Below, piece after piece: positions 34,104 through 51,195 of a stretch of DNA of 60,129 nucleotides; positions within the stretch are counted from its first letter, which is position 1; every line of letters starts with the position of its first letter. The stretch lies in the NCBI GenBank assembly GCA_964016885.1, contig CAXHJY010000716.1, positions 1 to 60,129 of the forward strand, read 5' to 3'. A model generated the notes under the pieces. That model ran no database searches. It saw only the letters and a program-made list of their open reading frames with translations, and was not told the origin of the DNA. Source of the DNA: Eledone cirrhosa (lineage: Eukaryota). The position numbers and the translations under genes are program-made.

Positions 34104-34296
34104 AGGAAAAAGTATGACCCCGACGGTCGAGCTCCAGCCGTTTCGACGGCTATTTCTGAGTCCAGAAATAGCCGTCGAAACGGCTAGCTCTGCCGTCGGG
34201 GTCATACTTTTTCCTATTTCCCACTCTACTACCCTAAGTATTGACTACTCTGGTGCGTTGTGATCCATCTGGTTCCATACCACAATTCCTTTGTTA
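34104..34296 (+). mobile_element. About 190-bp fold-back insertion (hairpin + tail), family copy A
   Basis: 34104-34215 is a near-perfect hairpin; homologous to 47927-48105, 49851-50055 and 51001-51195. Confidence 0.85.
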
Positions 34297-35611
34297 TATA
34301 TATATATATATATATATACATATACACACATACATACATATATATATATATATATATATATATATATATATATACATATGTGTGTGTGTGTGTTCAGTTA
34401 TCAAGTGTAACATTAAACAGATTATAGGACCGTATTTCTATATGACAGTGGGGGTTAATATGACATGTTATGCAATAGGTACTTATCACATAGCAGAGCA
34501 GTGAGAGGTATTGGAATAGAATATCAGATATTATAGAGACGATATCACATTCTAAAATTACCTACAATCACACGCTCACCATATATATAGATATACACTA
34601 CATGTATGCACACATAGACACACACACATAGACACACACACACACACACATACGAACGCACGTATAATCTGAGATTACACTCAAACGTATAAACACACAC
34701 GCAAACAGATAAACATACACACACACATATACATATACATACATATACATACATTCAGATACATGCACAAACCCATATATGCATATACACGCATCCACAC
34801 ACACATACACATACCCATACATGTTTCCACACATAAACACACATCTCACACATGAACAAACGCAAACGCATAAACATACACACACATATATACATACATT
34901 CACACACCCATATATACATATACACGCATGCACACACGCACATACATGTATGCACACTTAGACACACACTCATAGACAAACACAAACACACGTATATACT
35001 CAAGCATATAAACACACACACAAGCGCATAAACATACATACACATATACATATACTATATATATATGCATGCACACACACCCATACATGTATGTACACAT
35101 TGACAGACACACACAGACACACACAAACACACGTATATACTCAAATACATAAATACACACTTATTCATTTACACACCCATTCATACATATATGCACACTT
35201 CAACACACACTAGGACACACGCATACACACTTTCACACATATGCACACAAATACATAAGCATACACACACACACACACACACACACACACACATATATAT
35301 ATATATATATATATATATATATATGGACACATAGGATCAGAAAGGGACACGGACATACGCATACACTCAAACACATAAACAAGCACACATATACATATAC
35401 ACAACCATACATACATATATACACATATAGGCTCAAACAGACAAACACAGACTAACACATACACACAAAAAATATACAAACACACATACAAATACACACC
35501 TATACATAGATATACGTATGCATAGAGACAAACGCATACACACTTATACACACAAACATATAAACATACACACACATTTACATATGCACACCCATACATA
35601 TATGTAGCACA

Positions 35612-35753
35612 TGGTGGCTGCCAACTCGTTTTCGAGTACGGCCACTACTTTATATCCATGTAGCAGAACCCCTACTGATGCGCTGAACGAGTGTGACTTT
35701 TTAGTCCAACCAAACACTACACCTGTGACAATTATTGACACATAGTGCTGGGC
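35612..35753 (-). mobile_element. 3' fragment of the RTE-like non-autonomous element
   Basis: Reverse complement of about 43017-43180. Confidence 0.75.
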
Positions 35754-36175
35754 ACGTAGGCACGTAATACACACACGAACACACGAAAACACATTAACAC
35801 ATATATACACACAAACACACACAGATTCAAATGCAAACCCATACATATATGCAGCACGTAGGCACATACAGGCACACACAAAAACACGCACATACACACT
35901 TACAAGATCACACCCATATACACATACATGCACAAACTCATACACATATATATATGCAGCACAAATAGGCACACATAAACACACACGGATATACGCATAT
36001 ACACATAAAAACACTCATACACACAAACACACACGCATAGACACATATGCACACCCATATATATACATATATTCACACACACAGGTATATGTACACACTT
36101 ACGCACACGCACATACACACATATATAAACACACAAGCCCAGACACAGTCATACATGCATTTAGCAAGCATTTGT

Positions 36176-37145
36176 AGATGCGGGTGGCCTAGTGGGAAGG
36201 GTATTGGACTTACGATCATATTGTTGAGGGTTTGATTCCTGGACCGGGTAGTGTGTTGTGTTCTTGAGCAAAACATTTAATCTCACGTTCCTTCAGTATA
36301 CTCAGTAGAGGCGGGTGGCCTAGTGCTAAGGGTGTCTCACGTTCCTTCAGTATACTCAATAGAGGCGGGGGGCCTAGTGCTAAGGGTGTCTCACGTTCCT
36401 TCAGTATACTCAATAGAGGCGGGTGGCCTAGTGCTAAGGGTGTCTCACGTTCCTTCAGTATACTCAATAGAGGCGGGTGGCCTAGTGCTAAGGGTGTCTC
36501 ACGTTCCTTCAGTATACTCAGTAGAGGCGGGTGGCCTAGTACTAAGGGTGTCTCACGTTCCTTCAGTATACTCAGTAGAGGCGGGTGGCCTAGTGCTAAG
36601 GGTGTCTCACGTTCCTTCAGTATACTCAGTAGAGGCGGGTGGCCTAGTGCTAAGGGTGTCTCACGTTCCTTCAGTATACTTAGTAGAGGCGGGTGGCCTA
36701 GTGCTAAGGGTGTCTCACGTTCCTTCAGTATACTCAGTAGAGGCGGGTGGCCTAGTGCTAAGGGTGTCTCACGTTCCTTCAGTATACTCAGTAGAGGCGG
36801 GTGGCCTAGTGCTAAGGGTGTCTCACGTTCCTTCAGTATACTCAGTAGAGGCGGGTGGCCTAGTGCTAAGGGTGTCTCACGTTCCTTCAGTATACTCAGT
36901 AGAGGCGGGTGGGCTAGTGCTAAGGGTGTTGGATTTATGATCATATTGCTGCGGGTTCTATTCCTACATCTCATTTCACGTTGCTCCAGTATATTCAACT
37001 GAAAATGAGTACCAGCAATAGCTGGGAGTTTAGCTCTGCGATGGACTGGCGTCCTTTCCAGGGATGTCTTGTAATCTCAGTCGCTTAACTCTAAGGAAAC
37101 TGGGATAAGTATCGGCCTGATGAGCCTCTCCGGGTTCGGGACAGT
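36176..37145 (+). mobile_element. tRNA-derived SINE(s) flanking and containing the 54-bp array
   Basis: A-box-like TGGCCTAGTGG, B-box-like GGTTTGATTCC, core TGCGATGGACTGGCGTCC; homologous to 38198-38480. Confidence 0.78.
36283..36930 (+). repeat. 54-bp x 12 minisatellite made of SINE parts
   Basis: Unit TCACGTTCCTTCAGTATACTCAGTAGAGGCGGGTGGCCTAGTGCTAAGGGTGTC, starts every 54 nt from 36283 to 36877. Confidence 0.95.
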
Positions 37146-37219
37146 CTTTAGACGCAGGCTGTGTTAATTGCCGGGTAGATCTATCAATAGGCAAGTAGCA
37201 CGAAACTATAACAGAGACA

Positions 37220-47926: not shown

Positions 47927-48105
47927 GTAAGGAACCAGATGGACCATAACGCACCAAAGTACTCAATACTTAGGGTAGTAGAGTGGGTAATAGGAACAAG
48001 TATGACCCTGACGGCAGAGCTCAAGCCGTTTCGACGGCTAATTCAGTCCAGAATTAGCCGTCGAAACGGCTTGAGCACTGCCGTCGGGGTCATACTTGTT
48101 CCTAT
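47927..48105 (-). mobile_element. Fold-back family copy B
   Basis: Hairpin 47990-48105 plus tail. Confidence 0.85.
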
Positions 48106-49850
48106 ATATATATATATATATATATATATATATATGCTGTATATGATGTATATATATGATGTATATATATGATGTATATATATATGATGTATATATATAT
48201 GATCTATATATATATATGATGTATATATATGATGTATATATATGATGTATATATATGATGTGTATATATATGATCTATATATATATATATGATCTATATA
48301 TATATATATATGATGTATATATATATATATATATGATGTATATATATATATATATATATATGATGTATATATATATATATATATACGATGTATATATATA
48401 TATATATATATATATATGACGTATATATATATATATATATTCGATGTATATATATATATATATATATTATATATATATATATATATATATATATATATGA
48501 TGTATATATATATATATATATATATATATATATGATGTATATATATATATATATATATATATATACGATGTATATATATATATATATATATATATATATA
48601 TATATATATATGATGTATATATATATATATATATATATATATATGATGTATATATATATATATATATATATATATACGATGTATATATATATATATATAT
48701 ATATATATATATATATATATATATATATATATATATATATGATGTATATATATATATATATATATATATATATATGATGTATATATATATATATATATAT
48801 ATATATATACGATGTATATATATATATATATATATATATATATACGATGTATATATATATATATATATATATATATACATCATATATATATATATATATA
48901 TATATATATATACATCATATATATATATATATATATATATATATACATCATATATATATATATATATATGATGTATATATATATATATATATATATATAT
49001 ATATACGATGTATATATATATATATATATATATACGATGTATATATATATATATATATATACGATGTATATATATATATATATATGATGTATATATATAT
49101 ATATATATATGATGTATATATATATATATATATATACGATGTATATATATATATATATCCTCGAGTCGGAGGATCCCTATAAAGAATCTGAAATATATAG
49201 AACTATCTCAGAACTGCTCTTGTAGAGTGGGTTTGCTCAACGCTACCTGGACACCCCCACACTACTCACACGTTGCAGAGACCACCTAATATCATTAAAG
49301 CTCTAAAACCTGAAAATGTGGGAATGTCATGATCTTCAGCTGTCCACAACGGCTTACAACATTCCCTGCACAGCGGCTTTTTATAACAGATTAATCTTTT
49401 ACTATAGACAGTATTTAATGAGAGCTACGGTTGTCTCACTACCTGTGGACGTATACATGTATAGATGCATCTCGCTCTCTCTCTCTCTCTATCTCTCTCT
49501 ATCTCTCTCACTCTCTTTCTCTCTCATTTATATATAATGTGCATGTCTGTGTGTGTTTGTCTGTGTGTGGCTGTAAATAGATTTGTATATATATATAGAT
49601 ATGTATATAGACATGTATATGTATGTGTGTATATATATATATATTTATATATATATATGCGCGCGTGCGCGTCTGTGTGTGTGTCCCGAATTCAATCGGT
49701 GGTAACCACAGTAAGTAAGGTACTCAATACATTAGTAAAGTGTAAACATGCTGTTTAATATAGAAACGGCGTTTACAGGACTAGAACAGTTTTATTCAAA
49801 AGAAATCATCTGGAAAGCCATTTCTATATTAAACACGATATATATATATA

Positions 49851-50055
49851 TAGGAACAAGTATGACCCCGACGGCAGAGCTCAAGCCGTTTCGGATGGCT
49901 ATTTCTGGTCCAGAAATAGCCGTCGAAAAAAAAAAATACCCCACCCCCCCCCCCCCGTCGCCCGCTTGAGCTCTGCCATCGAGGTCATACTTGTTCCTAT
50001 TACCCACTCTACTACCCTAAGTATTGAATACTTTGGTGCGTCTGGTCCATCTGGT
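49851..50055 (+). mobile_element. Fold-back family copy C (poly-A/poly-C insert at about 49927-49963)
   Basis: Homology to copies A, B and D. Confidence 0.82.
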
Positions 50056-51000
50056 ATGTGTGTGTGTATTTCTCTCTCTGTAAATATATACACACACACA
50101 TATATACACACATATATGTATATACACACATATATATATATATATAGACACGGGCGTGTGTGTGTGTGAGTGTGTGTGTGTTTCTCTCTCTTATTCATAT
50201 ATATATATACATATATATGTATATATCCACACACACGCACGCACGCACACACACACACACACACACACACACACGCACGCACACACACACACACACACAC
50301 ACACACACACACACACACACACACACACACATATATATATATATATATATATATATATATACATGTGTGTGTGTGTGTGTGTGTTTGTCAACTTGGCACC
50401 AATGACGTTGCAACTCATTTCTTCAGTTGAGTGATCTAAAATAAAGTGTCTTGCTCAAGAACATAACGTAAGGCCCGTTCAAGGAAATCGAACTCATAAC
50501 CGTGAGTTTGTGAACCCAAAGCTCTAACCACAAAGCTAGAGCCTAGGGGATTCACTTAACAAATAGGAGGGCCTGTGTTCGATCACACGTGTATTCTCCC
50601 ATAACATGGGTTGATCAATGCCTTGTCAGTAAAATGGATACCTGGAATTAGTGTCGAAGTAAGTGGGATAAAGTGTGCTTGGGATTCAAATGTGGCATAC
50701 TATGCAGAATATTATTTCAAGTGTTTGCGGAATAAACAACCATTAGCACTAAAAGTCTCTGTGGAAGGTGTTCAGCTAAGCGAACAACTGATCTTCCCAT
50801 TGGCGAAACCACGGGAGAACCATTTATTACACATGCTCGATGCGTTATGTCCTTGAGCAAGACACTTTATTTCACGTTGCTCCTTCTACCTGGAGTTGCG
50901 ACCGATATATATTATTAGCAACTGGAAAGACCGACGTAAACATTATTTCCTCGGTCCGATTTGACGAAAGTCAATCGATCCTTTATATATATATATATAT

Positions 51001-51195
51001 AGGAACGAGTAGGACCCCGACGGCTGAGCTCAAGCCGTTTCGACGGCTAATTCTGGAGTCCAGAATTAGCCGTCGAAACGGCTTGAGCTCAGCCGTCGGG
51101 GTCCTACTCGTTCCTATTACCCACTCTACTACCCTAAGTATTGAGTACTTTGGTGCGTTATGGTCCACCTGGTTCCTTACCACATTTCCTTCGTT
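51001..51195 (+). mobile_element. Fold-back family copy D
   Basis: Hairpin 51001-51115 with no arm mismatch seen, plus 80-bp tail. Confidence 0.87.

Follow-up and report, generated by a model that had tools for sequence, protein, structure and literature searches.

A complete 60-kb contig from the 3.0-Gb genome of Eledone cirrhosa (contig CAXHJY010000716.1 of assembly GCA_964016885.1, 60,129 nucleotides (nt), hereafter the window) carries four copies, A to D, of a repeat that consists of a hairpin followed by an unpaired tail and that contains one half of a hammerhead ribozyme. These hairpins are examined here together with a 3,542-nt Penelope-like retroelement found in the same genome, referred to as the parent, of which they are probably the shortest insertion products. 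The window is A+T-rich (29% G+C) and dense in microsatellites. Its copies and one solo arm are listed below; G12 is a residue of the hammerhead core, and the initiator-like motif and the proposed priming sites 1 and 2 are places in the parent that are described in the following sections.

34105-34295, + strand: copy A, whole
34105..34158, - strand: copy A, untailed arm, an inverted parent copy spanning priming site 1 to a point 14 nt above G12
34159..34217, + strand: copy A, tailed arm; its first base is the A of the initiator-like motif, and it matches locus L121 from 3848 onward
34218..34295, + strand: copy A, tail, the parent stretch bounded by priming sites 1 and 2 (open reading frame 5' leader), then (TA)n
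47922..48102, - strand: copy B, whole element; tail (47992-47927) slightly short, untailed arm extending beyond the tailed arm
49853..50055, + strand: copy C, with ~34 nt of A and C runs in place of part of the right arm and a shortened tail
51002-51195, + strand: copy D, whole
51002..51056, - strand: copy D, untailed arm, 55/55 complementary to the other arm
51057..51117, + strand: copy D, tailed arm; its first base is the A of the initiator-like motif, with G12 at 51075 and the cleavage triplet ending at 51097
51118..51195, + strand: copy D, tail, then (TA)n; copy D is 96% identical to the parent over 144 nt
31930..31958, - strand: solo arm fragment of 29 nt, adjoining a (TA)-rich run

Hairpin-Plus-Tail Copies

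Three of the four copies (A, B, and D) form a 53-55-bp hairpin followed by a tail of ~80 nt, and all four are located in or beside (TA)n. The tailed arm of copy A contains the 3' strand of stem II, G12 at 34177, stem III, a cleavage triplet ending at 34197, and the 3' strand of stem I, and what the window copies hold, locked in the hairpin, is a type I hammerhead 3' half: G12-A-A-A, a stem III capped by a palindromic loop, the cleavage triplet, and the stem I 3' strand. The core strand is absent. An earlier reading of the window from its letters (hereafter the original prediction) had described four repeats with half a ribozyme and no core strand; the repeats are real, and the arm-end motifs that it quoted are present in both arms. 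A scan of the window with Rfam gave no hammerhead among the best 150 of 425 rows, and the microRNA rows among these 150 lay on microsatellite-rich stretches and under their cut-offs. A genome-wide count that required an exact match to the inner part of each arm gave at least 12,063 hairpins, whereas the reversed control gave 0, and the family is thus not due to chance. The A/C-run block of copy C (49929-49963) could be a sequencing or assembly artefact within a strong hairpin. A short repeat located beside (TA)n at 49690-49745 and 56723-56793 has an 11-nt word in common with the family tail, and it adjoins an arm in locus L043.

The original prediction had also proposed that variants are specific to each copy and mirrored in its two arms. 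At the main diagnostic sites, most shared variants are indeed mirrored, but private variants are mirrored in only 2/22 cases, and the identity of the two arms within a copy (49/55 in A, 50/53 in B) is slightly above that between copies (46-49 of 53-55), copy D being perfect (55/55). The variants are subfamily marks rather than copy-specific changes: the form of copy A is common to its 29 nearest relatives, and each form also occurs in long copies of the parent.

A Penelope-Like Parent Element

A longer-armed copy supplied an extension with 3,504 exact matches in the genome, many of them as inverted pairs, and five parent units were found in tandem at a spacing of 3,542-3,543 nt (G000:C1:91.47-91.49 Mb). 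The arm and tail of the window copies match, at 86-96%, the parent stretch between the 3' untranslated region and the next open reading frame (ORF), that is, the junction of the pseudo-long terminal repeat (pseudo-LTR) and the ORF. The parent has a single ORF of 719 amino acids from the first Met with reverse transcriptase (RT; FDI, YRDD) and GIY-YIG (VIY...YIG) motifs, and it carries the marks of the Hydra clade: RLRWR at 102, DKTG at 184, CNCPDRSIC at 639, CNLCSEE at 737, and CKH at 765. A total of 2,054 relatives of the protein were found at E 1e-20 or better, many with PF26215 and the top match with PF01541. Like endonuclease-positive (EN+) Penelope-like elements, the family combines this RT and GIY-YIG ORF with tandem or partial-tandem pseudo-LTR units (partial tandems are also present in long insertions L121, L124, L126, and L132) and with an inverted 5'-truncated copy that has a one-sided tail. 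Flanks of the element agree with insertion of the Hydra clade in (TA)n, while in place of the canonical hammerhead of that clade the pseudo-LTR contains a variant one. On these features the parent is best classified as an endonuclease-positive Penelope-like element of the Hydra clade. Counting against this assignment, a Pfam search of four parent ORFs returned no match, and the clade is given by motifs rather than by a tree.

The stretch G000:C1:91473070-91493820 (loci L118-L120) is a single insertion whose tailed side carries over five full-length units in tandem, 99-100% alike; several of these units have an open frame of 784-786 codons, indicating very recent activity. All three subfamily forms of the window, and a more distant third type, are present in long copies. 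A likely recombinant occurs at L155:1408-1524 (-), a long copy in which the stem II 5' strand is of the third-subfamily type, the 3' strand is of the A type, and the core is U3-G8. The Penelope-like ORFs of the window itself were considered as parent and rejected: one is 38% identical in protein, and the DNA match is confined to arm and tail.

A parent that encodes RT bears out the retro-product origin given in the original prediction. The possibility named there, that arm variants track subfamilies of a DNA transposon, proved half right, in that the variants do track subfamilies, but those of a retroelement. Other traits likewise depart from miniature inverted-repeat transposable elements (MITEs) and DNA transposons, as one end is an unpaired tail and the centres vary; any TA duplication would be masked inside (TA)n. 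A non-long terminal repeat retrozyme, which as published has tandem units that each contain a complete type I hammerhead, was rejected for dispersed copies that hold half a ribozyme. Words on the minus strand that resemble A and B boxes had prompted a reading as a transfer RNA (tRNA)-derived short interspersed element (SINE), which was dropped after the parent was found. The window elements are not MITEs, retrozymes, or working ribozymes.

A Predicted Variant Hammerhead Behind the Hairpins

The longer parent with a full ribozyme and a long stem II that the original prediction called for exists, but not with the canonical core it expected: CTGANGA is absent from either strand of the parent unit. 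Upstream of stem II, the parent has the 5' strand of stem I followed by U-U-G-A-N-A-A, a core with a U3:A8 pair that has 5,143 matches in the genome. Among 59 distinct long copies, U3:A8 is found in 49, C3-A8 in six, G3-A8 in two, U3-G8 in two, and C3:G8 in none, with position 7 free (G, A, U, or C). A search for the canonical core upstream of the 3' half gave 69 genome matches, and those that were read are chance joins at truncated copies or unrelated sequence in which stems I and II are unmatched; stem I together with the canonical core gave 27 matches versus 14 in a control, and 0 of the matched stretches contained the 3' half.

The core features of a type I hammerhead are present in the parent, namely a 3-8 pair, G12-A13-A14-A15, and a NUH site, and a three-way junction with stems I, II, and III is the lowest-energy fold in two subfamilies (z -0.37 and -2.22). 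When 17 copies were aligned on this fold, 87.7% of cells were paired and four pairs were changed on both sides; both-side changes were seen in three pairs of stem II. The covariation score was 0.152 for the junction fold versus 0.015-0.066 when it was slid; the 17 copies are related, and shuffle counts are therefore not probabilities. U3:A8 covariation is known from Schistosoma Penelope-like elements, where such ribozymes were reported to be active (Perreault et al., 2011, PMC3088659; Cervera and De la Pena, 2014, PMC4209133). Several results speak against a ribozyme in the parent: Rfam gave no hammerhead on it, one of the two subfamily folds (z -0.37) is no better than shuffles, a Watson-Crick 3-8 pair is absent in 10/59 long copies, and the cleavage site shows no accumulation of arm ends (1/49 rows within 3 nt, some rows being duplicated). 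With no pile-up at that site, a template cut by the ribozyme was also rejected as the cause of the arm ends. A hammerhead with a long stem II stands behind the hairpins, and that of the parent is a predicted ribozyme.

Fixed Outer Ends and Free Inner Ends

The outer ends of the insertions are fixed at two places. In 12 long insertions (L121-L132), the ends fall at one of two unit positions, 71 (78 in the alignment of L124) and 154, and abut (TA)n wherever the flank was read; all 12 are two-armed, with one end of each type in 11 and two short ends in one. The tails agree: among 126 hairpins, comprising all loci collected, 119 have one tail, six have none, and one has two. In contigs of runs X1 and X4, loose ends in (TA)n occur at both of these parent positions; the few contigs in runs X5 and X6 (depth 2-8) were not used as evidence for other species. 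An inverted truncated copy with a one-sided tail is the published picture of a Penelope-like insertion (Arkhipova et al., 2013, PMC3846280; Craig et al., 2021, PMC8557442), and for the PAc element of the green anole nicking and extension of both strands were observed in vitro, with an internal start site on either side of the tail (Frangieh et al., 2024, PMC11167929).

The inner ends, on the other hand, are free and symmetric. They were read in the first 50 exact hairpins on contig C1, of which 49 were recovered and 47 oriented, and clean joins (n=34) were defined by exact matching to one parent form per element. The 49 hairpins have 43 different centres, supporting the view of the original prediction that each insertion makes its own junction. 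In the clean joins, the tailed arm is longer in 13/34, the untailed arm in 13/34, and 8/34 are open, and arm lengths are uncorrelated (rho -0.10, p 0.57). The overlap at the join is 0-1 nt in 27/34 and 2 nt or more in seven (3.9 expected, p 0.08), while 7/34 have no room for a 3-nt loop; extra letters or a point change occur at the join in 13/47, and several of these are short copies of nearby sequence. Long insertions have the same two free arms over kilobases, with the untailed arm reaching further in six and the tailed arm in four, one being complex and one having no tail. Both arms are of one subfamily in 90/92 hairpins (41% expected at random), which is taken as a sign of one RNA pool; of the two exceptions, one differs at one mark and one (L182) at three linked marks.

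The original prediction explained the paired arms by snap-back, in which one complementary DNA (cDNA) folds back in stem II and copies itself into the second arm, and self-priming has also been put forward for Penelope palindromes (Arkhipova et al., 2013, PMC3846280). The arms of one subfamily in 90/92 hairpins and the slight excess of overlaps of 2 nt or more agree with it, as do some of the six clean joins (6/34) that have a 4-nt overlap: in three of these, and in window copy B, a 4-nt pairing around a 6-nt loop is what would be expected from fold-back of the untailed strand. Snap-back of a tailed first strand, however, cannot give an untailed arm longer than itself, as is seen in 13/34, and snap-back of an untailed one would have no source for the tail; a join between two cDNAs is therefore favoured. 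The joins without loop room and the 27/34 with 0-1 nt of pairing also disagree with snap-back as the rule, the apex of stem II is kept at no listed centre (arms stop ~10 nt short of it), the tailed arm of locus L090 consists of no more than 43 nt of tail and the opposite arm extends past the entire ribozyme, and L182 has arms of two subfamilies. Self-priming thus seems quite improbable as the general route, although a minority of the junctions may still come from it, in addition to two-site priming. An end-to-end join of two cDNAs suits every junction class better than snap-back does; the 4-nt overlaps, however, weigh on the other side, the sample is young and short by selection and all from one chromosome, and L182 is the only clear two-subfamily hairpin, which later gene conversion could also explain. 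A very improbable alternative is a self-amplifying non-autonomous element (SINE, MITE, or retrozyme) whose copies would each be made whole from one or a few master hairpins. The very high copy number, the recurrence of some centres (the commonest 3/49), and the excess of hairpins (12,063) over core-reaching copies (5,143 arm matches) would be in keeping with such amplification, yet it is largely refuted by the 43 different centres in 49. Moreover, each of the subfamily marks recurs in copies that are long, linked to an ORF, or core-bearing, the unpaired 80-nt tail at one end means that the ends are not terminal inverted repeats, a complete ribozyme is absent, and the copies are not tandem.

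A Stop Zone Inside Stem II

Arm ends cluster at or just below a TTAGTY/TCAGTY motif in stem II. Of 128 arms ending 9-26 nt above G12, from loci not selected by junction, 120 do not pass position 20, and in 18 the terminal base is the A of the motif, which lies 18 nt above G12. The third subfamily keeps the sequence and distance of the motif although the rest of its loop II differs, and 5/20 of its arms among those listed end on the motif, the commonest value (two are perhaps one duplicated copy). In 28 arms scored from 29 loci that were picked by the downstream part only, 12 end 16-19 nt above G12 and eight scored further; among the short scores, two are long copies with a point change. Contig depth, which is not copy number, steps up across the motif sevenfold in run X1 and tenfold in X4 and falls several-hundredfold after the tail. 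Solo arms at L219, L221, and L025 run from (TA)n directly into the motif. The motif resembles the consensus of the invertebrate initiator. Internal promoters with an initiator have been reported in Penelope pseudo-LTRs. Together, these observations suggest an RNA 5' end at the motif, with a few bases trimmed during joining, and a candidate start site within the ribozyme.

The same stops could arise if two-site priming and head-to-head joining operate on a longer RNA on which RT is halted by the uppermost helix of stem II or by a bound protein. A weak helix atop stem II, predicted to start ~14 nt above G12, does begin within the end zone, and ends at 12 and 14 are as frequent as at 17-18. Nor are the data uniformly favourable to a start at the motif: arm ends are spread over 11-20 nt rather than sharp, 8/128 are beyond position 20, and a cap-type extra G before the motif (5/10 versus 12/45 elsewhere, p 0.25) is not significant in unbiased loci. 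To stall at the top helix, however, the enzyme would have passed three stronger G+C-rich helices first, the third subfamily keeps the motif and the stop while its top helix is poorly kept, and the solo arms joined directly to (TA)n begin at the motif. A stall is accordingly judged unlikely. A strong excess of extra G in another set (43/86) was left unused, as loci picked for their resemblance to copy A exaggerate it.

Proposed Mechanism

The most probable account, in which we have reasonable though not firm confidence, is that the hairpins are the shortest insertion products of a Hydra-type Penelope-like element and arise by two-site priming, run-off inside stem II, and head-to-head joining. 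Both cut strands of the (TA)n target would prime reverse transcription at two internal sites ~80 nt apart; nicking and extension of two strands and start sites that bracket the tail are borrowed from in vitro work on another clade (Frangieh et al., 2024, PMC11167929). Both cDNAs would then run off the 5' end of the RNA, probably inside stem II of the predicted hammerhead, with the motif as putative start site, and their ends may be joined head to head by host end joining or by end-to-end template jumping. Whereas the original prediction had half of the core deleted by the insertion, the core strand would, on two-site priming, be missing because the template lacked it.

A further proposal, which is tentative and which we put forward as a possibility rather than an expectation, is that transcription starts inside the hammerhead, that the RNA begins with the substrate half only and bears an identical 41-nt stretch, from the start to the cleavage site, at each end, and that the hairpins are failed transfers. 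If this is true, the priming sites would not be cut off in cis, and the 41-nt terminal repeat would resemble the R region of retroviruses. cDNAs primed near the 5' end would be strong-stop-like, and a jump to the 3' end via the repeat would be needed for long and tandem copies; when both jumps fail, the cDNAs would join each other and give the dominant hairpins of the family. The 3' ribozyme core strand could complete the 5' half in trans, with a predicted three-way junction of -27.7 kcal/mol.

Other Elements in the Window

The contig is dense in Penelope-like elements. Further Penelope-like ORFs or pieces, tandem repeats, and inverted structures in the window are as follows.

1743-3739, - strand: Penelope-like ORF or piece
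13048-15460, - strand: Penelope-like ORF or piece; 13048-14808 matches RVT_1 and GIY-YIG
16860-18917, + strand: Penelope-like ORF or piece; product 38% identical to the parent protein, with a linker of the same type
53352-53729: Penelope-like ORF or piece
54998-55612, - strand: Penelope-like ORF or piece
57021-58058, + strand: Penelope-like ORF or piece
54930-55868 and 57204-58143: 940-bp inverted pair (96%) of another Penelope-like family
58234-58275: small hammerhead-like motif just downstream of the 940-bp pair, with a canonical core, a short stem II, and a palindromic loop 3
near 25960-26150, - strand: partner of this motif, in another inverted pair around a (TA)n run
11239-12232: inverted structure of ~1 kb (87%) with a canonical core word on each arm (11474, 11984)
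4007-4540, 22894-24495/58317-59644, and 44298-44639/45239-45750: more inverted pairs or two-armed insertions beside (TA)n, probably of other families with the same insertion style
36281-36929: 54-bp unit repeated 12 times in tandem, 98% alike

The tandem array at 36281-36929 continues into what looks like the start of a tRNA-derived SINE.

Comparison With Known Systems

Among the article texts searched, no account was found of the present family, nor of transcription starting inside the hammerhead of a Penelope element. The octopus 'Twin' SINE, of which these texts likewise gave no description, is reportedly a highly abundant short octopus repeat and would be a candidate for the same family. 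The hairpin-plus-tail form is a known product of Penelope elements, and the data suggest that what is new here is arms that stop at a conserved initiator-like motif inside stem II. This bears on the origin of the inverted and tandem structures of Penelope-like elements, for which published in vitro work ends after priming and self-priming has only been proposed. The family offers thousands of young, very short insertions with countable junctions, and the sample examined argues against self-priming and for two joined cDNAs. If the RNA does start inside the ribozyme, promoter, ribozyme, and pseudo-LTR formation would form one scheme, and pseudo-LTR formation in Penelope would be a strand-transfer process with more than 10,000 natural read-outs. 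Repeats of this type would otherwise be filed as unclassified SINEs, MITEs, or microRNA hairpins, and the parent escapes searches that use the canonical core.

With the insertion unit of EN+ Penelope-like elements (PMC8557442; PMC3846280), the family has in common head-to-head arms, one tail, tandem full-length units, and a microsatellite target; it differs in a tail of ~80 nt rather than 30-40 nt and in that its main product is the shortest form, two 55-nt arms ending inside the ribozyme. The parent agrees with the Hydra clade (Craig et al., 2021, PMC8557442) in the RW[R/K] and DKT motifs, the CxCX5C linker, the C-terminal GIY-YIG, the CxxC and CxH around the last conserved endonuclease residues, and (TA)n targeting. 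Its unit, however, is 3.5 kb whereas the clade is generally below 3 kb, and its ribozyme is non-canonical (U3:A8, stem II of ~56 nt) and missed by Rfam. The type I hammerheads of Penelope-like elements (PMC4209133; PMC3088659) likewise have a type I fold in the pseudo-LTR, a palindromic loop 3, and U3-A8 covariation, while the predicted ribozyme of the parent differs from them by a stable 5-bp stem III and a very long stem II with an initiator-like motif. For Poseidon PAc of the green anole, which belongs to a different clade, product length follows the RNA 5' end and the template is mainly uncleaved RNA (Frangieh et al., 2024, PMC11167929). The sections of that report consulted do not deal with the meeting of the cDNAs, the natural RNA start, or short hairpin products. 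The model of two RT start sites that bracket the tail, with both strands nicked and extended, is common to PAc and the present family.

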